Below the pieces are notes generated by a model. It was not told where the DNA came from, did no database searches, and saw only the letters and a list, made by a program, of their open reading frames with translations. A program made the translations under genes and the position numbers. From Promethearchaeota archaeon (GTDB lineage Archaea; Asgardarchaeota; Lokiarchaeia; Sigyniarchaeales; SOKP01): DNA of 23,252 bases. The stretch is from NCBI GenBank assembly GCA_048938855.1, contig JBHLLT010000019.1, positions 2,636-25,887 of the forward strand, in the 5' to 3' direction. Shown one piece after another: positions 1,207 through 21,579 of this stretch. The stretch's first letter is position 1, and every line of letters begins with the position of its first letter.

Positions 1207-1478
1207 TTAATTGTAAAAATTCATAAATGCTTCATTCACAATCCTTTTTCTATTCGCCAGTACATTGCTTTCTAATTCTCTGGAATACGGGATGGTAATT
1301 TCGGTACATAGGTGCCCAAATTTGAATGAGATATCGTTTTCTATAAGTATAGCACAGATTACGCCTGACATTCCAAACTTTTTATAGTCTTCATCAACTA
1401 TTAAGAGCGCTCCAGTTTTTTCTACAGAATTTTTCAATCTTTCTACATTTAACGGACCACACACCTTAAGTCTACATT
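1207..1478 (-). pseudogene. Frameshifted C-terminal remnant of a 2-oxoacid (pyruvate/acetoin/branched-chain) dehydrogenase E1 beta subunit (transketolase C-terminal domain)
   Basis: PLNVERLKNSVEKTGALLIVDEDYKKFGMSG...IPYSRELESNVL matches the E1-beta C-terminal pattern. The preceding DLR motif (VDLRCVV, 1475-1455) is in another frame and is joined by restoring 1 nt near 1454. The N-terminal domain is absent. Confidence 0.8.
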
Positions 1479-3654: not shown

Positions 3655-4479
3655 TTAAATCAATTTTGCTATTTTTTCGCAAGTACGTGCGCAGTCGAGA
3701 AAAATCAATCCGAGTCTTACATCTTTCCCGGTTGAGACAGATAGTACTCCATTAGGACCTGCAGGCATAACGAGGAGGTATCCATCATTTCCGCGAATAT
3801 ATAACTGTTCGAATTCCCCACGTTTTATCAAGGTTATAGCACTTTCGGCTAATGAGAGAAGCGCTGCAATCATTACGGCAACTGTGTTTTCCTCAACATC
3901 TTTAGGCATTACTGAAGCTAAGATCTCCCCTTCAGTGGAAACGAGGGTTGCCGCATTTAATTCTGGAATTGAATCTATTAAATTTTCTAAGAGGTTGTCA
4001 AGGTTATCTAAAACTTGGGATTCAAATGACTCTCTAGTTAAGAAATCTGGAAGATTTACTTTTTTTTTAGGAGGATGTTCGATATTTTGTAGCATTTCAA
4101 GTTCTTCTTCTAAATCATCATAACTTTCATTTGTTTTAGAAGCAAGAGTATTAAGTTTCGCCTCGAGCGCAGCAATCTTCTTCTTGACTTCTTTTTTAAA
4201 GCTTGGTTCAGACTCAAGATAATCCTTTAATACTTCTACCAACATATTAGTGTCAATTTGAGGTTTTTCCGAGTCTACAGGTGATTTATAGGTGTAGATA
4301 TATTGCCTTCCTCTTTTTCCGAGAGTTTTAATCTTTTCTTTTTTCTTTAGACGTTGAAGATAAGTACGAGTATCTTGTTTACTTAAACTAAGCTGTTGTG
4401 CTATTTCATCACTTGTTAATGATTCAGTTTTAAGTAGATTTAATATACGGTCTTTATTGCTCAGTTCAAATTGAGCGAT
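3655..4479 (-). CDS. Winged-helix DNA-binding domain + coiled-coil linker + Roadblock/LC7 domain fusion (274 aa, probable ATC start)
   Basis: The tracked ORF (to 4245) extends 78 in-frame codons: IAQFELSNKDRILNLLKTESLTSDEIAQQLSLSKQDTRTYLQRLKKKEKIKTLGKRGRQYIYTYK, a typical wHTH. SD GGTGAGG precedes ATC at 4479 and an in-frame TGA lies at 4488-4486. C-terminus AATLVSTEGEILAS...EQLYIRGNDGYLLV...RLGLIFLD is Roadblock/LC7. Confidence 0.85.
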   Translation of the reverse strand: MAQFELSNKDRILNLLKTESLTSDEIAQQLSLSKQDTRTYLQRLKKKEKIKTLGKRGRQYIYTYKSPVDSEKPQIDTNMLVEVLKDYLESEPSFKKEVKKKIAALEAKLNTLASKTNESYDDLEEELEMLQNIEHPPKKKVNLPDFLTRESFESQVLDNLDNLLENLIDSIPELNAATLVSTEGEILASVMPKDVEENTVAVMIAALLSLAESAITLIKRGEFEQLYIRGNDGYLLVMPAGPNGVLSVSTGKDVRLGLIFLDCARTCEKIAKLI

Positions 4480-4559
4480 TGTTCCTCACCCTTTTATATA
4501 ACACTCTTAACTTTATTGTTATGAAAAATAATTTTGAAATATGTTTTTTTTTATTTGAC

Positions 4560-4687
4560 CTGTATATTAATTGTATATTATCATATATAAATATGTGGGG
4601 ATAATCATATTAATGATACAAGAACCAAAAAATTTAAATATGCATGTATACAATTAATATACAGTTGTATATACTTTAATATACAGG
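4560..4687. promoter_or_regulatory. Divergent promoter pair with identical 18-bp operators
   Basis: Minus strand: TTTATATA (4591-4584), 6 nt, TATACAATTAATATACAG (4577-4560). Plus strand: TTTAAATA (4633-4640), 6 nt, TATACAATTAATATACAG (4647-4664). Third degenerate copy TATACTTTAATATACAGG at 4670-4687. Confidence 0.8.
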
Positions 4688-4710
4688 ACAATTATTAAAT
4701 CCAAAATTGA

Positions 4711-4887
4711 ATGATGAATAATCGGGAAAACAATTACATTCGAATACCAGAGGATATTGATTTTCTTTTAGAGTGTTGTCGAGAATTATTAAGAAAAGTT
4801 AAAGATTATAACCCAAATGATGATTTACCTGTTAGTTTTGAACAAATAAGAAGATTAAAAAGTATAGAACAAACATATAGGAAGTGA
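4711..4887 (+). CDS. Small helical hypothetical protein (58 aa; not in ORF track)
   Basis: MMNNRENNYIRIPEDIDFLLECCRELLRKVKDYNPNDDLPVSFEQIRRLKSIEQTYRK*; first ORF after the plus-strand promoter; two amphipathic helices; stop overlaps the SD of the next gene. Confidence 0.65.
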   Translation: MMNNRENNYIRIPEDIDFLLECCRELLRKVKDYNPNDDLPVSFEQIRRLKSIEQTYRK

Positions 4888-4893
4888 GTAATT

Positions 4894-5280
4894 ATCAGAG
4901 AAGAAAATATTTTTTTAACTGAATTAGAAGCAGTTTTAAAAAAATTATTAGAAAGTAATCGAGAGATAACACTTGCGATAATCACTTCTATAGAAGGTCT
5001 ACCAATTCTTTCGATATTGCCCCGAGAATATAATGAAACAACATTATCTGCAATGGTTGCTACTCTACTCTCTTTAGCTGAAAGGACTGTTGTAGATATG
5101 GAAATTGGGATATTTAATCAAATATATATTAAGGGAAATGATGGTTATTTATTAATTTTTGATGCGGAATTAGCTGCTTTAGCTGTATCGACTACAGAAA
5201 AAGCGAAATTAGGGTTAATATTCCTTGAGTGTGAACGTGCTTCACATGAAATATCAAAGATTATGAAAGGAGTGAAATAA
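4894..5280 (+). CDS. Roadblock/LC7 domain protein (128 aa, probable ATC start)
   Basis: The tracked ORF (5017) extends upstream in frame as IREENIFLTELEAVLKKLLESNREITLAIITSIEGLPILSILP. It is collinear and equal in length to paralog 21193..21579, whose ATG aligns with ATC 4894. SD-like GGAAGTGA at 4880-4887. Confidence 0.88.
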   Translation: MREENIFLTELEAVLKKLLESNREITLAIITSIEGLPILSILPREYNETTLSAMVATLLSLAERTVVDMEIGIFNQIYIKGNDGYLLIFDAELAALAVSTTEKAKLGLIFLECERASHEISKIMKGVK

Positions 5281-5321: not shown

Positions 5322-7112
5322 TTATTTCTTTACAAATTCTCTTCTCTTTTGAAAGTAATAAACTATGCTTGGTATTGCAATAAATATTGTCAACAAGATA
5401 AGAGAAGAAACTCCAATAGTAGTTGGAGATGATGGTTCATTATGAATCATTTTAATTATCAATGTAGATTGCGTACAGATGATTTCGTTATTATGATTTT
5501 GGAAAATAGCTGAGTTATCAATACCTCTATTGTTAACTGCAAATATTGTTCTTCGATTTTCTTCTAATAACCAGATATGCAGATCATCATTCCTTCCAAT
5601 GAGGATACCCTGTTCAACAGAGCAATATCCTAAAGATGGTTCAATGACGGCATTTGGACCATAGATATCGGTGAAATTAGCAAATTCTGTGGTAATTAAT
5701 TGTTTTTGCATTGACCCATCAGGTATTTTATAGAGGGAGTTATTATATGCTTCATAAATGAAGATATTACCAAATTCATCGACAACTCCATTTGTTTTAG
5801 TTGTGTGTGGCATTGTTAATACTTTAGAATAATTCATTGGATCGCCTAAAGGAATTCTATAAACATTTGATTCGTTTTGTAAAGCGTCTTCAGTTATCAG
5901 AACAATGTTGTGATTTTTCTCGTCATAAACCATTGTTTTAGTTACTTCAACAATTTCATTTTTAAACCAGCTAGTCATTGTCCCTGCGTGACTAACCTGA
6001 TAGATTGAAACAGAGTCGTTTAATAAGGTCGCAAATATATGGTTGTCAACATCTACAATGAGTTTATTAACAGATGTATTAATTGGAGCTTGACAAAAAA
6101 CTGTAGGTCCAGATTGATTAATCTGATAAATAGTATCATCGATCACATAAAGTATTTTTCCATCTCTCGTTTCGATTAATGTGTGAGAATTAACGACGGG
6201 TGTTAGTATTTCAGCTACTGATTTCACAGGGTCATAATTCACAAGGCACCCACCAAAACTAACTGCAGCTATGAATGTTTTTAATTTTGGAAACCAGGTT
6301 AGTTGTCCCATTCCTAATTTTGACGCCATTATAAATTCATATGAATTATTGGTGTACTTGTAGAATCCTCTCTCGTTTCCATCCGCAGTCATACTATAAA
6401 GAGTATCATTGTCATCGACCCCAATGCCGATTACTTCTTGTGTATCTGGTAACCCAATTCCAGTTCTCATTACTTTTGTTGTGAATGATGTTAAATTCAA
6501 TTGTGTAATAGTTCCAATGTAAGTCTGAGTATAATAGAGAAGGGTTTGATTATTATTCAAAATTATCTGACTGCATCCCTGAACATTCGATACTACAGTA
6601 GAGAGATTATTACCATCTGCATCATAGTAAAAAATGTCTGTGTTTTCAAATAGAGAGCCGCAATAAAAAGAATCATCGATTGGATTAATAGCCAATTCAC
6701 TTATCGGTCCAAAATACGTATAATTTTTCAATAAGGTAATTTGACTGGGAGTTATCGTATAAAAACCAGACATAGTTACTCCTAATAGTCGATTGTGATT
6801 TGGTTGATATTCTATATCAGTAAAACTAAGGTTTCCTGTTGATATTACTTCTGAATGTATACCATTTTCATCCATTTTCATCAAAATATGATTTAAATTA
6901 TCGATATAATATAGATCTCCATTTTCCCCAATACAATTTGTACCTGGAGGGTGTGGAATTTCATAGATTGGATATGCATCCCATCCAGATCTAAGATCTT
7001 TTAACGGTAAACTTTCTTGAGCTCTAGCAAATATGATTTGAAAAAATGGGTTGATAAAAAGTGCTATTATTATTAGAACAAAATATAATCTCGAGTTTTT
7101 AAACAATACCAT
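5322..7112 (-). CDS. Membrane-anchored extracellular beta-propeller protein (NHL/SMP-30-like repeats)
   Basis: Signal peptide; repeated blade motifs (GENGDLYYID, ELAINPIDDSFY, IGVDDNDTLY, LIVDVDNHIF, VVDEFGNIFI); C-terminal TM helix followed by QKRREFVKK. Confidence 0.8.
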   Translation of the reverse strand: MVLFKNSRLYFVLIIIALFINPFFQIIFARAQESLPLKDLRSGWDAYPIYEIPHPPGTNCIGENGDLYYIDNLNHILMKMDENGIHSEVISTGNLSFTDIEYQPNHNRLLGVTMSGFYTITPSQITLLKNYTYFGPISELAINPIDDSFYCGSLFENTDIFYYDADGNNLSTVVSNVQGCSQIILNNNQTLLYYTQTYIGTITQLNLTSFTTKVMRTGIGLPDTQEVIGIGVDDNDTLYSMTADGNERGFYKYTNNSYEFIMASKLGMGQLTWFPKLKTFIAAVSFGGCLVNYDPVKSVAEILTPVVNSHTLIETRDGKILYVIDDTIYQINQSGPTVFCQAPINTSVNKLIVDVDNHIFATLLNDSVSIYQVSHAGTMTSWFKNEIVEVTKTMVYDEKNHNIVLITEDALQNESNVYRIPLGDPMNYSKVLTMPHTTKTNGVVDEFGNIFIYEAYNNSLYKIPDGSMQKQLITTEFANFTDIYGPNAVIEPSLGYCSVEQGILIGRNDDLHIWLLEENRRTIFAVNNRGIDNSAIFQNHNNEIICTQSTLIIKMIHNEPSSPTTIGVSSLILLTIFIAIPSIVYYFQKRREFVKK

Positions 7113-10236: not shown

Positions 10237-13200
10237 TTGAAGGTAAATAGACGCCAAATTCGAGTTTTGTATATTTTAATTTTAACATGCTCAATTTTAA
10301 CGATTTTTTCTATAGATAATATCAGAAATAATAATTTTAATGATAAAGGGGATACCAGTTATGATTTAGATTCACGAATGAAGCTTTCGAGTAATCCTCC
10401 AAATCAGGACTATTTTAATTATTATAAAGAGATAACAATAAATCATTTAAAAGTTGCAGAGGATCTTACTAATTTTCCATTATTAATTTCTATATACGAT
10501 TCTGATTTACATTCAAAGGTTCAATCAGATGGAGATGATATTGCTTTCTCAAATGGCTCAGATTGGTTAGACTATGAGATGGAATTATTTGATCAATCTT
10601 ATAGTGGTACTGAAGCTCAGTTAGTAGCTTGGGTAACCGTTCCTTCAGTTTCAAGTTCTACGGACACTAAAATTTACATGTATTATGGAAACTCCACCAT
10701 GGAAGCGCAAGAAAATCCTAGTGGAGTTTGGAGTTCTAATTATAAAGCGGTATGGCACTTAAATACTACCTCGCAAGGTCCAAATATGCTAATAGACTCA
10801 ACAGTCAATAATAATGATGGAACTAATTTTGAAGCGAATGATGGATCAGCATATATTGTTAACGGTCGGGATTACGATGGAAGTAATGATTACTCAAATA
10901 TGGGTTCAGGAAGTAGTATAGATAATATATTTAATGGAGGAGCAACAATATCAGCTTGGATTTACCCGGAAGGATGGGGGGGAGGTACTTATGGCCGAAT
11001 CTTAGATAAAGCAACTGAGACAGCAGGTACAGATGGATGGGTCGTTTGCCTTGATGGTGGTGTTTCACCATGGTACAATCAGTTATTGTTTTATCGTGAT
11101 TTCACTGGCACTAGGGGACTTTGGATGAGTGGAGATAATACCATAGCACTCGATCAATGGCAATATATAACCATTACTTACGATGATTCTTCTGCATCAA
11201 ACGATCCAATGCTTTATATCAATGGTGTAGATGAGAGTGGGAAATCAGGTTGGGAAGATGTCACCCCTACGGGTGGTGCAAGTGACGATGCAGCACAATC
11301 ATTATATATTGGGAACTTTTTGAGTGGAATACGGGGTTTTAACGGTTTAATTGACGAGGTTCGTTTAATATCAGGTATGAAAACCTCCGGTTGGATTCAA
11401 ACAGAATTTAATAATCAAAATAATCCCAGTACATTTTATACAATTGGTGCTGAAATTTCACTTGATACTATACCTCCTGATATTACAATCAACTCACCAT
11501 CAACCAATAGTTTATTCGGGAGTATAGCACCAAATTTCAATGTAGAAATAAATGATAGTAGTAGTATAGATTCAAGATGGTATCGATTGTTTAATGGAAC
11601 AGTTACTACACTTAATACAACTTTTACGACAAATGGAACAATTAATCAAGCACGTTGGGACGAGATGGGAAATGGTACTGTGTCACTTCAATTCTTTGCT
11701 AACGATTCTTCAGGTAATATAGGATTTTCAGAGGTAACAGTGCGAAAGGATATCCGTTATCCAACGATTGTTATCAATTCTCCAAACAGTTTTGAGCTTT
11801 TTGGTACTACACCTCCTACTTTTAATGTAGAAACTAGTGATGTTAATGGTGTAGATGATATGTGGTATACTTTAAATAATGGAATAGAAACTTATTTCAC
11901 TACTAATGGTACAATATCACAATCAGTTTGGAATACATGTGGAAATGGTACTGTTTCAATTAAATTTTATGCGAATGACTCCTTAGGTAATGAAGGTTTT
12001 TCAGAAGTGATAGTACGAAAAGAAGTAAATTCTCCAACGATTCAGATTAATTCTCCAAATGCTTATGAATGTTTTGGTAAAAGTGCACCAAGTTTCAATG
12101 TTTTAATTAGAGATAATTATACAATTGATGATATGTGGTATACTTTAAATAATGGAATAGAAACTTATTTCACTACTAATGGTACAATATCACAATCAGT
12201 TTGGAATACATGTGGAAATGGAACTGTTTCAATTAAGTTTTATGCGAATAATTCTTTAGGTAATGGCGCTTTCACTGAAATTATTGTTAGGAAAGATATA
12301 ATAAATCCTATTATAACAATTAATAGCCCTGATGATTATGATTTATATGGACGATCTGCACCTGCATATAATGTTTTGATTAGTGATCCTAATGGAATCG
12401 ATTCGAAGTGGTATACCCTTGATGGAGGAACCACTAATACTACCTTTATATCAAATGGGATAATTAATCAGACAAGATGGAATGAAATGGGAAGTGGGAT
12501 AATAGTGATTAGATTTTATGCAAGTGATACTCTTGGAAATATAGGTTTCTCAGATGTATACGTTGATAAAGATGTTGACAATCCGGATATTACTATTAAT
12601 TTTCCAGCACCTAATCAGTTATGTGGAGCGATTGCTCCTAGTTTTAATATCGAGATTTCTGACCATAGTAGTATAAGTTTGAGAACATATTCGATTAATA
12701 ACGGCATAAATGTGACATTTACTACAAATACTTCAATAAATCAAGCGTTATGGAATTTAGAAGGAAACGGCACAGTTAATATTAAGTTTTACGCAAAAGA
12801 TTCCTTAGGTAATGAGGGTTTTTCAGAAGTCAATGTTCGTAAGGATATAGATCCTCCTACGATATTAATTAATAATCCCATCTCAGATCAAGTATTTGGA
12901 ACAACTTCACCAGCTTATAATGTTGAAATAACTGATATAAATGGTATCGATGCTATGTGGTATTCTCTCGATGGTGGATTCACAAATACGATCTTTACAA
13001 CAAATGGATCAATAAATCAAGCGATTTGGGACAGTATAGGAGATGGAAATGTTAATATCCGCTTCTATTCCAACAATAGTATTGGAACAGTCGGATATTC
13101 AGAAGTTTCAATCATTAAAGATGTTTATGCTCCAAGGATAACGATAACAATTGATAATCCAATTAATGAAGTATATTGTAAAGAAGCACCAATTATTAAC

Positions 13201-14658
13201 GTATCCGCTTCTGATGTCAATATAGATAAGTTATGGTGTGAAATTGGAAACGATACAATATCACTGATAAATAACGAAGATTTTGAATTAAATAGCTCCA
13301 TTTGGAATGACTTACCTCAAGGATTATTTCAGATTTTTATTTATGCTAATGATACACTTGGTCATTTAAACAATAGCATAATATTAGATTTTTGTAAGGA
13401 TACAATTGCTCCAAATGCTCCAATACTAACAGAATTTCCATCGGGAGAGGTTTCTATACCTTTAGTATTTGATTGGCAGGAGGTAATTGATGATTCGGGG
13501 ATTAAGGAATATCGATTAATCATAGACACCGAACAAAATCCTTTTGCAACTCCAGGTTTTACATTTGAAGAAGTAATTCAAAATAATGGCTCAGGAAGTA
13601 GTTATTACGAATTACTTGAGTACTTAGTTCCAAGAAACTACTACTTCTTTATTTATCAAATTGATATGGCTGGAAATCAAGGTAATGCAGCATATGGCAC
13701 TTTTACCATTAAAGGTGCGTCTGGTCCAGATTCGGGATTTCCATGGTGGATAATTTTGGCAATTGCGGTTCCATTAGGAGTAGCATTACTTGTTGTTGGG
13801 CTGAAAAAATCAAAAAAGAAAGAGGTGCAGGTACTTGTAATAGACAAGGAGTTAGATAAATTAAAGGAGAAAAGAACTTTTTTGGATACTGAAGCTAAAA
13901 GTGCCCTGAAAGCGTATAATTATGTAAAAGCCGCAGAAATCTATGAAGAATGTGCCCAAATATCATACAATTTATACAATGAAGGAGATAAACTTGAGCA
14001 AAGCAGATATAAGCATTTTAAAGACTTAGAGATGGAAGCGCGATCACAAGCGGAAGCCATTCCTATAAGAAATGTTTGTATTAACAAGATACTGACAAAA
14101 TTTTTTGATGAGAATGGAATAAAGTACTATTCAAATCCTCAAATCTATCCTGAAAATCAAGACACGATAAATGGGTTAATCCTAAATGAGAACAATTTCA
14201 TAAAAAATAGATTTACAGAACTTGATGATGGCATGGATCTGGCTAAAGAATTACATACTGATCTTACCATCTTAGAAAATATAAATGCTATACAAATCAT
14301 ATATGCTGTAGATTTATCTGCAGATACCTTAATTGATTATTGTCAAAAGTACCAGAATCCAGAGATGATACTTTATATTGTAGGTGTTGAGTGGCCTGCT
14401 TATAACTATGATGAAAGAATTAATCTTCCTAGAGATAACAAGATAAAGTACTCACAAAATATCAGTGTAATTAGTGTAAACTTGTTTGCTACAATATTTC
14501 TATTAAACGAACAAAATAAAGAAGACCTTCAAAGAATCATTAAATTGAGTGATTTAGATCGATTAAAGGAATTATATGAATCAATGAAAATTGATATACA
14601 TGGTACAGAAGAATTAAAAGATGAACTTAAGCAGAAAGGATGGTTTTTCTTAATTTAA
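10237..14658 (+). CDS. Large cell-surface protein: DUF2341-like + LamG/concanavalin A-like + ~6-7 Ig-like repeats of ~91 aa + TM + ~285-aa cytoplasmic region
   Basis: N-terminal hydrophobic segment; LTNFPLLISI...DGDDIAF...IYMYYGN (DUF2341-like); TISAWIYP...WQYITITYD...LYING...FNGLIDEVRL (LamG); repeats PxIxINSP...WYTL...FYANDSLGN; TM FPWWIILAIAVPLGVALLVVGL then KKSKKK. TTG start. Confidence 0.9.
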   Translation: MKVNRRQIRVLYILILTCSILTIFSIDNIRNNNFNDKGDTSYDLDSRMKLSSNPPNQDYFNYYKEITINHLKVAEDLTNFPLLISIYDSDLHSKVQSDGDDIAFSNGSDWLDYEMELFDQSYSGTEAQLVAWVTVPSVSSSTDTKIYMYYGNSTMEAQENPSGVWSSNYKAVWHLNTTSQGPNMLIDSTVNNNDGTNFEANDGSAYIVNGRDYDGSNDYSNMGSGSSIDNIFNGGATISAWIYPEGWGGGTYGRILDKATETAGTDGWVVCLDGGVSPWYNQLLFYRDFTGTRGLWMSGDNTIALDQWQYITITYDDSSASNDPMLYINGVDESGKSGWEDVTPTGGASDDAAQSLYIGNFLSGIRGFNGLIDEVRLISGMKTSGWIQTEFNNQNNPSTFYTIGAEISLDTIPPDITINSPSTNSLFGSIAPNFNVEINDSSSIDSRWYRLFNGTVTTLNTTFTTNGTINQARWDEMGNGTVSLQFFANDSSGNIGFSEVTVRKDIRYPTIVINSPNSFELFGTTPPTFNVETSDVNGVDDMWYTLNNGIETYFTTNGTISQSVWNTCGNGTVSIKFYANDSLGNEGFSEVIVRKEVNSPTIQINSPNAYECFGKSAPSFNVLIRDNYTIDDMWYTLNNGIETYFTTNGTISQSVWNTCGNGTVSIKFYANNSLGNGAFTEIIVRKDIINPIITINSPDDYDLYGRSAPAYNVLISDPNGIDSKWYTLDGGTTNTTFISNGIINQTRWNEMGSGIIVIRFYASDTLGNIGFSDVYVDKDVDNPDITINFPAPNQLCGAIAPSFNIEISDHSSISLRTYSINNGINVTFTTNTSINQALWNLEGNGTVNIKFYAKDSLGNEGFSEVNVRKDIDPPTILINNPISDQVFGTTSPAYNVEITDINGIDAMWYSLDGGFTNTIFTTNGSINQAIWDSIGDGNVNIRFYSNNSIGTVGYSEVSIIKDVYAPRITITIDNPINEVYCKEAPIINVSASDVNIDKLWCEIGNDTISLINNEDFELNSSIWNDLPQGLFQIFIYANDTLGHLNNSIILDFCKDTIAPNAPILTEFPSGEVSIPLVFDWQEVIDDSGIKEYRLIIDTEQNPFATPGFTFEEVIQNNGSGSSYYELLEYLVPRNYYFFIYQIDMAGNQGNAAYGTFTIKGASGPDSGFPWWIILAIAVPLGVALLVVGLKKSKKKEVQVLVIDKELDKLKEKRTFLDTEAKSALKAYNYVKAAEIYEECAQISYNLYNEGDKLEQSRYKHFKDLEMEARSQAEAIPIRNVCINKILTKFFDENGIKYYSNPQIYPENQDTINGLILNENNFIKNRFTELDDGMDLAKELHTDLTILENINAIQIIYAVDLSADTLIDYCQKYQNPEMILYIVGVEWPAYNYDERINLPRDNKIKYSQNISVISVNLFATIFLLNEQNKEDLQRIIKLSDLDRLKELYESMKIDIHGTEELKDELKQKGWFFLI
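11854..12265 (+). repeat. Intragenic direct repeat with a 95-bp identical core (11854-11948 = 12127-12221), 273-bp period
   Basis: Direct comparison; near-identity continues to about 11992/12265. Confidence 0.9.
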
Positions 14659-14688: not shown

Positions 14689-16245
14689 TTAAATAAGATT
14701 TTTAATAGCTGTTAACATTGCTTTTAATTGATTATGGATTTCTAATTGATAATCTCTACCCATTTTGAAGAAAATAATCGAGCCCATCTTTCGTTCTAAT
14801 TCCTCATCTATATGAAACTCTTGTATTAATTTTGTCCAATCATTTTGTTCTGATACAAGGATTCCTAACACTAAGACTTTATTTTTATCTAAAAATTCTA
14901 TAATTTTGCTAACGATATATGTCCATTTGGGATTAATTGAATCCCTATCTCGGGCGTCAAAGATACAGAATACACCATCAGAATCACTGACATCCTTTAA
15001 GAAATAGATGCAATTTTTTAATACTAAGCCATTTGAATACTGATAAAATTTTTCATCTTCTTCATCCTTAAAATTTACTAGTTGTTCATTATCACTTGAT
15101 TCAATCATTATTTGTAAAGCAGGATTCCAAAGAGGATTTTCAGTTATAAAAGTTAAAATTAGATTTTCTCGAAATTGCAAAATATATTCAATTTCGTTGA
15201 GCAATTCTTGATTTCTTTGTTGTTTAGCTACTTCTTTACATTTGGTTATGAAATTATATGCTATAAGTCTGAATGCATCTTCAATGTTTTCTCCCGTTAA
15301 TGCACTAGTCTCGAAATATAAAATATTATTATTTGAGGATCTCGCTAATGAATGTGACATACTAACAGCATCTTGATTGCTAATCGCACGTTTCTCAGTT
15401 AAATCTCTTTTATTCCCAATTATCATAACTGGTAAATCCTTACTGTCAATGAATTCATTTAACTCATTATACCAATTTATAACATTTTCAAATGATTTCC
15501 TATTTGTTAAATCAAAAACAATAAATCCTGCCTGGGCAGCATTATAATAAGTTTTACGATATCTTCGAAAATATTCTTGTGCGCCTATGTCCCAAAGAGC
15601 GACATTGATTTGATTCCCAAAAGATTCGAAGTCATGCGATATAACATTAAGCCCAATTGTAGCCCGATAATCTGAGAGAAATCGATTTTCTGAAAATCTA
15701 TGGATAATGGAAGTTTTTCCCACATTATGATCTCCTATAATTATGAATTTAAATTTGTAATTACCTTGAGGATCAAAATCTAACTGATATAATTGGTTTT
15801 TCATTCTTTTTGCTTGTTCAGCATCATACCTAAAATTAGGAATAGATAATTGAATATGATCATTTTCTTTCAGATTAATAATTTGAGCCGTTTTTTCTGC
15901 CAGAAAATACCCATAAGGAGAGTATTGCTCAATTGACGCCATTGTATTTAAAACCATGCTAAGCATTCTGTTTTCATCAACAGATATAAAAATCAATCGA
16001 TTATGATCTGTTTCAAATGAACATGAACCAAATTTTTTAAAATCAAATTCGTACCTAATTCGGTCCAAAATCGGATTAACAATAGTGGTTAAGACTGATA
16101 CTATTTCCATGTCAATATCTTTTCTTGTTTCTCCAGCAATAATCAATCCTTCTTCATCAGATACAATTATAGCTTCAGTTTCCTTATTCATTTCTAAAAA
16201 ATTGTTAAATAATTCATTGAATAGTGTATTTTTATTTAATAACAT
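14689..16245 (-). CDS. Roadblock/LC7 domain + Rab-like small GTPase + degenerate GTPase-like C-terminal domain
   Basis: N-terminal TEAIIVSDEEGLIIA (Roadblock); G1 GDHNVGKTS, G2 ATIG, G3 WDIGAQE, G4 GNKRD, G5 ETSAL; C-terminal SDGVFCIFDARDRDS...VLVLGI echoes GTPase beta4-beta5 with no P-loop. Confidence 0.92.
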   Translation of the reverse strand: MLLNKNTLFNELFNNFLEMNKETEAIIVSDEEGLIIAGETRKDIDMEIVSVLTTIVNPILDRIRYEFDFKKFGSCSFETDHNRLIFISVDENRMLSMVLNTMASIEQYSPYGYFLAEKTAQIINLKENDHIQLSIPNFRYDAEQAKRMKNQLYQLDFDPQGNYKFKFIIIGDHNVGKTSIIHRFSENRFLSDYRATIGLNVISHDFESFGNQINVALWDIGAQEYFRRYRKTYYNAAQAGFIVFDLTNRKSFENVINWYNELNEFIDSKDLPVMIIGNKRDLTEKRAISNQDAVSMSHSLARSSNNNILYFETSALTGENIEDAFRLIAYNFITKCKEVAKQQRNQELLNEIEYILQFRENLILTFITENPLWNPALQIMIESSDNEQLVNFKDEEDEKFYQYSNGLVLKNCIYFLKDVSDSDGVFCIFDARDRDSINPKWTYIVSKIIEFLDKNKVLVLGILVSEQNDWTKLIQEFHIDEELERKMGSIIFFKMGRDYQLEIHNQLKAMLTAIKNLI

Positions 16246-19590: not shown

Positions 19591-20322
19591 ATGGGCTTAT
19601 TAAAACATTGGAGGAAAAGAAGAAGGTTAAGAGATATTACAGGAGAGTTTATTTCTGAATCATTATATCAGACAATTAAAAACTTTAATGAAGATATGCC
19701 TGTTAGCGTTAAAGTCTCTAAAAGAAAACTTCCTAAGCAAGAATCTTCTGGAGATAAATTGATATATCGATTACATTTTGAGAGGATATATGATGCTACA
19801 TATAAAATCGTGTTATTTGGCGAGGCTGGCGCACCAAAGGTAGAATTAGTTCAAAAATTTTTAACTAATTTATTTAAATCAGATGCAAGAATGACAATAG
19901 GAGTAGATTTTGAAGTCAAGAGTCTTGAAGTCGATAATAAAAGGATAAAATTACAAGTTTGGGATTTTGGTGGAGAAGAAAGATTCAAATTCTTACTATC
20001 TACCTATGTTCGAGGGGCTAATGGAGCTCTCTTCTTATATGATGTTAATAATTATAGTTCCATAGCACATATAGATGATTGGCTAATGATAGTTAAAAAA
20101 GAGATTCAAGCTGAAGATCAATTCCCCATACTTGTTGTGGGAATAGTGTCAGAATTAGAAAATCGAGAAGTATCATCAGAAGAAGGAATGAGTATCGCAA
20201 AATCAAAAGGAGTAGACGGTTTTATAGAGTGTAGTCCAAGAACAGGTGAGAATGTAGAAGAAACATTTGAAACTCTAACTCGATTAATGCTTACTCATTC
20301 TGGAATGGGTATAATGCAATAA
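19591..20322 (+). CDS. Rab-like small GTPase paralog with degenerate nucleotide-binding motifs (probable pseudo-GTPase) and basic N-terminal extension
   Basis: MTIGVDF, KLQVWDFGGEERF and TGENVEETF are Rab-like, but G1 is GEAGAPKVE, G4 is GIVSE and G5 is ECSP. Confidence 0.9.
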   Translation: MGLLKHWRKRRRLRDITGEFISESLYQTIKNFNEDMPVSVKVSKRKLPKQESSGDKLIYRLHFERIYDATYKIVLFGEAGAPKVELVQKFLTNLFKSDARMTIGVDFEVKSLEVDNKRIKLQVWDFGGEERFKFLLSTYVRGANGALFLYDVNNYSSIAHIDDWLMIVKKEIQAEDQFPILVVGIVSELENREVSSEEGMSIAKSKGVDGFIECSPRTGENVEETFETLTRLMLTHSGMGIMQ

Positions 20323-21192: not shown

Positions 21193-21579
21193 ATGCCTGA
21201 GGAAGATAATATTACATCGAAATTGGAAGTTGTTTTAAAAAAATTATTAGCAAGTAGTCGAGAGATAAAACTTGCGATAATTTCGACAATGGAGGGGCTT
21301 CCAATTTTTTCAATATTGCCCCGAGAATATAATGAAACAAGACTTTCTGCTATGGTTGCAACATTACTCTCTTTATCTGAAAGATCTGTAGTAGATATGG
21401 AAATAGGCATATTTGAGCAGATATTTATTAAAGGATTAGATGGATATTTACTAATTTTTAATTCGGAACAAGCTGTACTGGCTGTTTCAGCAACAGAGAA
21501 AGCAAAACTGGGATTAGTTTTTCTTGAATGCGAGCGGGCATCGCATAATATCTCAACGATTCTAAAAAAGGAGAAATAA
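21193..21579 (+). CDS. Roadblock/LC7 domain protein
   Basis: LAIISTMEGLPIFS...LSAMVATLLSLSER...EQIFIKGLDGYLLI...KLGLVFLE; 128 aa. Confidence 0.93.
   Translation: MPEEDNITSKLEVVLKKLLASSREIKLAIISTMEGLPIFSILPREYNETRLSAMVATLLSLSERSVVDMEIGIFEQIFIKGLDGYLLIFNSEQAVLAVSATEKAKLGLVFLECERASHNISTILKKEK

Follow-up and report, generated by a model that had tools for sequence, protein, structure and literature searches.

The divergent locus and its proteins

Within the window (the whole 23,252-nucleotide stretch of Promethearchaeota DNA analysed here), a gene for a 274-residue protein lies on the reverse strand and is divergent from a 58-codon open reading frame (ORF) and a stand-alone Roadblock/LC7 gene on the forward strand (Table 1). 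An earlier note, made from the sequence, had proposed that the first of these genes fuses a winged helix-turn-helix (wHTH) domain, hidden from ORF calling, through a coiled coil to a Roadblock, and domain profiles and structure prediction recovered both domains. Pfam places the wHTH at residues 9-52, with FaeA as the best profile (E 1e-4, 22.9 bits, cut-off 20.7) and weaker matches to many further HTH families, and Robl_LC7 at residues 161-248 (E 4.5e-16); scores of 58.8 and 38 bits with the Roadblock/LC7 profile (PF03259), whose gathering cut-off is 23, establish membership of that family. The SdpR autorepressor profile (NF033789) gave 23 bits against a curated cut-off of 100, and at the level of sequence the domain belongs to no named family beyond generic HTH. 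The AlphaFold2 model, built with 29 homologues, consists of three helices and a wing hairpin (pLDDT about 90), helices at residues 77-115, a disordered linker and the Roadblock, which Foldseek matched to Asgard Roadblocks, MglB and LAMTOR (E 5e-11 to 9jue).

Table 1. Features of the divergent locus and the second free Roadblock gene (positions in the window)
Feature	Position	Strand	Basis or remark
Fusion gene (wHTH, coiled coil, Roadblock) of 274 codons starting at ATC	3655..4479	-	Pfam, AlphaFold2 (AF2), dN/dS, start-codon comparison
Winged helix-turn-helix domain, residues about 6-64	4288..4464	-	Pfam FaeA/HTH_11/HTH_24; AF2; dN/dS
Helical / coiled-coil segment, residues 77-115	4135..4251	-	AF2 model; dN/dS
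Fused Roadblock/LC7 domain	3658..4020	-	Diverged copy (62%) of the family's near-invariant core Roadblock
Shine-Dalgarno GGTGAG of the fusion gene	4485..4490	-	ATC start 6 nt after GGTGA
Putative left operator with ATATACA directly repeated once at 11-bp spacing	4560..4580	-	Between TATA box and expected fusion-gene start site
Putative TATA box TTTATATA, fusion-gene promoter	4584..4591	-	Conservation 0.97; archaeal consensus
Putative BRE-like A-run and TATA box TTTAAATA, facing operon	4627..4640	+	Alignment
Putative right operator, four TATAC(A) repeats, about 11-bp period (4647, 4658, 4670, 4680)	4645..4687	+	Spans expected start site
58-aa helical-hairpin protein gene, no known family, single copy	4711..4887	+	Conserved, nearly always at the switch locus
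Free Roadblock/LC7 gene	4894..5280	+	Robl_LC7; start probably ATC, behind a GTGAG that overlaps the stop of the small ORF
Second copy of free Roadblock, 75% identical	21193..21579	+	Operator absent upstream

The full frame of the fusion gene is obtained with table-11 alternative starts, among which ATC is permitted; calling from ATG alone shifts the start 78 codons downstream, and because of the ATC start some database entries (196-residue calls) lack the wHTH. Across 15 genomes, dN/dS was lowest in the wHTH (0.16, residues 6-64) and the coiled coil (0.17), followed by the Roadblock (0.22) and the linker (0.45); residues of the recognition helix and wing show almost no variation among homologues, and the Roadblock strand GEFEQL is essentially invariant among fusions. 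The N-terminal 78 codons are confirmed as coding, with the wHTH under purifying selection. An ATH codon (ATC in 17 cases) lies 6 nt after GGTGA in 20 of the 21 loci that have this Shine-Dalgarno sequence, and the in-frame upstream stop is the TGA inside the Shine-Dalgarno sequence itself. Since ATH starts behind GGTGA appear common in the genome of the window, with ATC the rarest of them, the ATC start of the fusion is just mildly unusual. Long frames of the window's genome (G000) beginning 5-7 nt behind GGTGA start with ATT (28) and ATA (19), compared with 37 for ATG, and the start-codon pattern suggests that many genes of this genome are mis-started by callers restricted to ATG, GTG and TTG.

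On the forward strand, the stand-alone Roadblock is also a Robl_LC7 member, and the 58-residue protein is encoded by a conserved ORF with dN/dS of 0.40. It is modelled as a two-helix hairpin and has about ten relatives at 50% clustering; searches of the ESM Atlas and of known folds returned nothing specific. Assignment as a ribbon-helix-helix protein was rejected on the basis of the hairpin model and an unconserved N-terminal stretch. Nor was there support for the idea that the 58-residue protein is a stand-alone version of the small C-terminal domain that follows related wHTHs (P0087, G263, L091): hhalign gave probabilities of 1-7% (P 0.005-0.04) and HMM cross-scores reached at best about the top 1-5% of background ORFs, and we retain the likeness only as a weak lead, prompted by the complementary distributions of protein and domain. 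A seemingly natural fusion of the small protein to a Roadblock (P0088) was discarded, as the gene call reads TGA as Trp. The small ORF and the free Roadblock (4711-5280) share a frame with one TGA between them, as in L012, L007, L016 and L010 and unlike most loci; read-through from one into the other is not indicated. Complex prediction with two copies of fusion residues 4-135 and the 58-residue protein scored 0.01, which is evidence neither way. In most relatives a CBM96/'YITLKL'-domain gene follows the free Roadblock, where it is a more constant neighbour than GTPases; it is absent in the window.

Elsewhere, the window holds an isolated 85-residue transketolase C-terminal fragment (1207-1464, reverse strand), probably a gene remnant, and two predicted surface proteins, one beta-propeller-like with a C-terminal anchor (5322-7112, reverse strand) and one of 1473 residues with DUF2341 and LamG (10237-14658, forward strand).

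An element shared by both promoters

The earlier note had also described the same operator-like element at both promoters, and this held up on comparison: the 18-bp element TATACAATTAATATACAG occurs with the same letters at 4647-4664 of the forward strand and 4560-4577 of the reverse strand, within a 40-bp inverted repeat. Alignment of the intergenic regions of 21 loci revealed two mirror-image blocks, each consisting of a TATA box followed by TATACA-type direct repeats, with column conservation of 0.96 and 0.83 in the operator blocks and 0.48-0.66 in the flanks. By standard archaeal spacing, the repeats would lie at about -19 to +1 of the fusion gene's own promoter and at about -18 to +24 of the facing promoter. 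A sigma-70 scan, a model not applicable to archaea, stayed at chance level.

A position weight matrix (PWM) scan of the 3.95-Mb genome found these two as the only strong sites, scoring 28.9 and 25.4, with the next at 17.3; one hit above 22 appeared in one of three shuffled controls. This two-site uniqueness argues for local control, as opposed to a regulon or a general promoter element, and a regulon under the wHTH was rejected on the same count. The exact 19-mer is present in 21 of 135 genomes of the family (reversed-pattern control, 0): in 19 it lies at the wHTH locus, in G233 it belongs to the same two-sided promoter, at a contig end, and in G158 it is solitary, has no TATA box and looks like a chance hit. 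The element is missing from G194 and G178, which have lost the wHTH, and from G227, which has lost the facing genes, and is retained beside Roadblock-less wHTH proteins in G203, G214, G197, G263 and L094; G183 carries a more distant wHTH at the syntenic position and no PWM match. Tracking the wHTH gene and vanishing where the wHTH is lost, the element behaves as expected of a wHTH operator, although kin share the locus by descent, so that the co-occurrence counts overstate independence and only about three of the losses are independent. A conserved site in the regulator's own promoter that follows the regulator gene, the mark of an archaeal wHTH autorepressor, was found here.

Distribution of the fusion and exchange of its domains

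Homologues of the fusion carry the labels Promethearchaeota (Loki) and other Asgard MAG names. The full-length fusion occurs in 17 genomes, namely 16 of the 54 in the genus of the window and one from another genus of the same family, and none was found outside that family among 400 genomes of the phylum. The fusion is not pan-Asgard. Where it occurs, the arrangement is well kept: the 58-residue ORF and the free Roadblock accompany it in 16 of the 17 genomes, of which G207 and G228 are locally rearranged.

Among the closest variants, even the Roadblock-less ones, the coiled-coil segment remains joined to the wHTH. In G203 and G214 the regulator runs from a gelsolin-like domain through the wHTH to the coiled coil and ends without a Roadblock, and in G197 its C-terminal end is an unrelated domain; all three genomes retain the operator, the small ORF and the free Roadblock. 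P0065 joins gelsolin-like domain, wHTH and Roadblock in one protein, and a gelsolin-like domain ahead of the same wHTH, whether or not a Roadblock follows, is seen in P0065, P0072 and P0086 and at L058 and L059. In G263, from another genus, the same operator pair drives a wHTH chimera that includes a Rab-like GTPase, with no Roadblock at the locus. This chimera (L100:8682-11324, C112) spans at least 881 residues and contains a host-gene fragment, coiled coil, wHTH, small domain, coiled coil, Rab-like GTPase, Zn ribbon and a further host piece; it faces a gene with CDC48 N-domain, coiled coil and Zn ribbon. G233 (L146, C18) has the same promoter pair and CDC48 fragment, again with no Roadblock at the locus, and the cargo pieces of G263 and G233 match separate genes in the genome of the window at 57-76% identity. 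At L094 the operator precedes a wHTH followed by short unknown ORFs. Conversely, G194 and G178 have lost the wHTH but kept the free Roadblock. VapBC-like antitoxin/PIN pairs, recognised by eye, sit at break points, where they replace the wHTH in G194 (L060) and the facing genes in G227 (L025), and at L099:1348-1617 (G166) the small domain of related wHTHs stands behind a different, possibly ribbon-helix-helix, N-terminus.

Since the same wHTH and operator also occur with gelsolin-like, Rab-GTPase or other host-gene copies and no Roadblock, the Roadblock is swappable cargo. The part of the earlier reading that made it the core of a transcriptional switch is not supported, as the same wHTH, operator and facing operon persist where the regulator has none (G203, G214, G197). 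What stands is the hidden wHTH, the conserved arrangement and the element, which behaves like a wHTH operator and lies where a repressor would be predicted to act.

The two Roadblocks of the locus form separate, faster-evolving offshoots of a near-invariant core Roadblock in a tree whose bootstrap support is not fully settled. In the window's genome the core gene lies at C34:349469-349822; average identity to the core is 64% for fused and 54% for free copies, and the two in the window are 41% identical to each other. Purifying selection acts on both (dN/dS about 0.2), and each retains the conserved strand. In the main fused clade, core residues are replaced on and near helix 2 (ETRIAAM to ExTVAVM, ERSVIEM to ESAITLI; GLP to GEI), the helix that we take to be the MglA-binding face. 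The fused Roadblock probably arose by capture of a copy of the core gene, which has since diverged; it is under selection within the clade yet exchangeable.

A proposed autorepression switch and related systems

We consider it likely, from the arrangement of promoters and element, that the wHTH autorepresses the bidirectional promoter, with the coiled coil, the Roadblock or both acting in oligomerisation. The protein, probably present at a low level given its ATC start, would bind the TATACA direct repeats just downstream of both TATA boxes and block recruitment of RNA polymerase, repressing its own gene and a facing operon of small protein, free Roadblock and, in most relatives, the CBM96/'YITLKL'-domain gene. 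The position of the repeats fits repression by blocked polymerase recruitment, and the majority of archaeal factors characterised so far repress by occluding TBP/TFB or RNA polymerase (PMC5569661). Oligomerisation through coiled coil and Roadblock would make binding cooperative along one helix face, although a two-fold Roadblock dimer has no obvious match to direct repeats unless flexible linkers allow it. The essentially invariant GEFEQL strand of the fused Roadblock agrees with such a role, and the solved Asgard Roadblocks are homodimers (PMC10933270). The conserved element coincides in part with the core-promoter melting/initiator region, where basal promoter constraint could be the cause of conservation. 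The 58-residue protein or a Roadblock partner would be the candidate inducer.

Readings that give a part to the 58-residue protein, the free Roadblock or a GTPase are modifiers of autorepression and not exclusive alternatives to it. In one, the 58-residue protein would be an anti-repressor or co-repressor acting on the wHTH/coiled-coil part; it is the single-copy first gene of the facing operon at most loci, its ORF is found in 19 of 20 cassette-bearing genomes of the clade, it stays where the regulator has no Roadblock, and its ORF is interrupted by stop codons in G178, a genome that has lost the wHTH. Its absence from the G263 and L094 switches, its displacement downstream in G228, its weaker selection and its lack of a family or fold assignment count against this, and we regard the role as doubtful. 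Somewhat less probable still is that the free Roadblock, made from the facing promoter, heterodimerises with the fused one and removes the repressor, which would create positive feedback and a bistable switch. Its constancy in cis with the fusion, which includes a relocated copy in G207, and the selection on both Roadblocks agree with such an exchange, and Roadblock heterodimers are known from LAMTOR2/3 (PMC10933270). Yet the free Roadblock is retained beside Roadblock-less regulators and in G194 and G178, which have no regulator, while in G227 the fusion stands without a free Roadblock in the 14 kb examined. The two Roadblocks are distant in sequence and fall in separate clades, and the free gene has been duplicated in the window to a place that lacks the operator.

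Coupling to a small GTPase, which would dock on the dimer of fused Roadblocks in the way MglA does on MglB and so switch DNA binding, seems to us improbable. The fold matches to MglB and LAMTOR and the Rab-like GTPase joined to the same wHTH in G263 favour it, as does a Ras-like gene within 3 kb at 7 of 18 homologous loci compared with about 12% of random genome positions, a count affected by some short contigs and by the kinship of the loci. Against it, the GTPases that do lie nearby belong to different families and differ in side and orientation, and most loci have none; core residues on and near helix 2 have been replaced in the main fused clade; and in MK-D1, GTPase genes as a rule do not share operons with Roadblocks (PMC10933270). 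No cognate small GTPase was found in the fusion's operon, as would be typical of MglB, the nearest in the window being about 9 kb away. Both Ras-family GTPases of the window (14689-16245, reverse strand, 518 residues; 19591-20322, forward strand, 243 residues) have long N-terminal extensions. The variation in GTPase type, side and orientation is more in keeping with a locus inside an island rich in duplicated signalling genes than with a partner dedicated to the fusion, and as relatives run the switch with other domains or no Roadblock, a GTPase-to-transcription link is possible yet unsupported.

A different question is where the switch came from. That promoter pair and wHTH form a portable cassette of mobile-element origin, which repeatedly captured host signalling genes (Roadblock, gelsolin-like, Rab, CDC48 N-domain), is compatible with autorepression, and we hold it to be a serious possibility that falls short of probable. 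It would account for the patchy distribution within one family, the operator and wHTH before short unknown ORFs at L094, the related wHTHs in short-gene clusters with divergent wHTH pairs (L091, L092) and the resemblance of cargo pieces to separate host genes. However, no integrase, capsid or terminal repeat was seen, the window has no mobility gene, IMG/VR and phage records gave no convincing match, PHROG matches were generic HTH, and inheritance within the genus is vertical as far as the Roadblock tree shows. Element-like short-gene clusters with related wHTHs, in which no integrase was seen, occur at L101:9007-12254, L092, L089 and L087; they include a divergent wHTH pair with TATAC-like half sites between. 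A broader proposal, in which the fused Roadblock makes DNA binding depend on its partners (the free Roadblock, the core one, or a GTPase attached to these) by way of a domain-capturing portable wHTH cassette, strikes us as rather unlikely; if partner-dependent binding were true, it would link a eukaryote-like signalling module directly to transcription in an Asgard archaeon.

The fusion is a new, lineage-restricted domain architecture on a known kind of switch, probably that of the archaeal autorepressors. The earlier note knew of no characterised example, and in the literature that we searched, with incomplete coverage, no description of an HTH-Roadblock fusion was found. To our knowledge, transcription control in Asgard archaea is little characterised, and the locus offers a compact, fully specified switch, with regulator, both promoters and operator known in sequence, that is open to testing in vitro. 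The cargo swaps indicate that a DNA-binding cassette fuses with copies of eukaryote-like domains (Roadblock, gelsolin-like, Rab), and its restriction to one family means that the switch is probably not ancestral to eukaryotic systems. Work on Asgard Roadblocks and GTPases has suggested that transcription factors control these genes (PMC10933270), and the wHTH switch is a candidate for such control, for the lineage-specific copies only.

Among known systems, the FaeA-like wHTHs (PF04703; FaeA/PapI family in the NCBI label) give the best HTH profile, just over the gathering cut-off, but the fusion is archaeal and multi-domain and so marginal a match is silent on fimbrial regulation. With Asgard Roadblocks (PDB 7f8m, 9jue, 7yh1), MglB (3t1s, 6hjm) and LAMTOR2/3 it shares the full Roadblock fold with its C-terminal helix; unlike them, its Roadblock is linked to a DNA-binding domain, fast-evolving and lineage-specific, and no cognate GTPase was found. 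C68 of the Sulfolobus plasmid-virus pSSVx (PMC5569661) is a regulator that binds between its own promoter and a divergent small gene, as proposed for the fusion, but it is AbrB-like and sits on a proven mobile element, whereas the regulator in the window is a wHTH of unproven mobility. Closest are the archaeal wHTH repressors that act by promoter occlusion, Mdr1, LrpA, Phr, Lrs14 and TrmB (PMC5569661), which resemble the fusion in their wHTH, in control of their own gene (as proposed here) and in conserved sites overlapping the region from TATA box to start site; the fusion differs from them in its direct-repeat operator on mirror-image promoters, its second domain, a Roadblock, and its ATC start.
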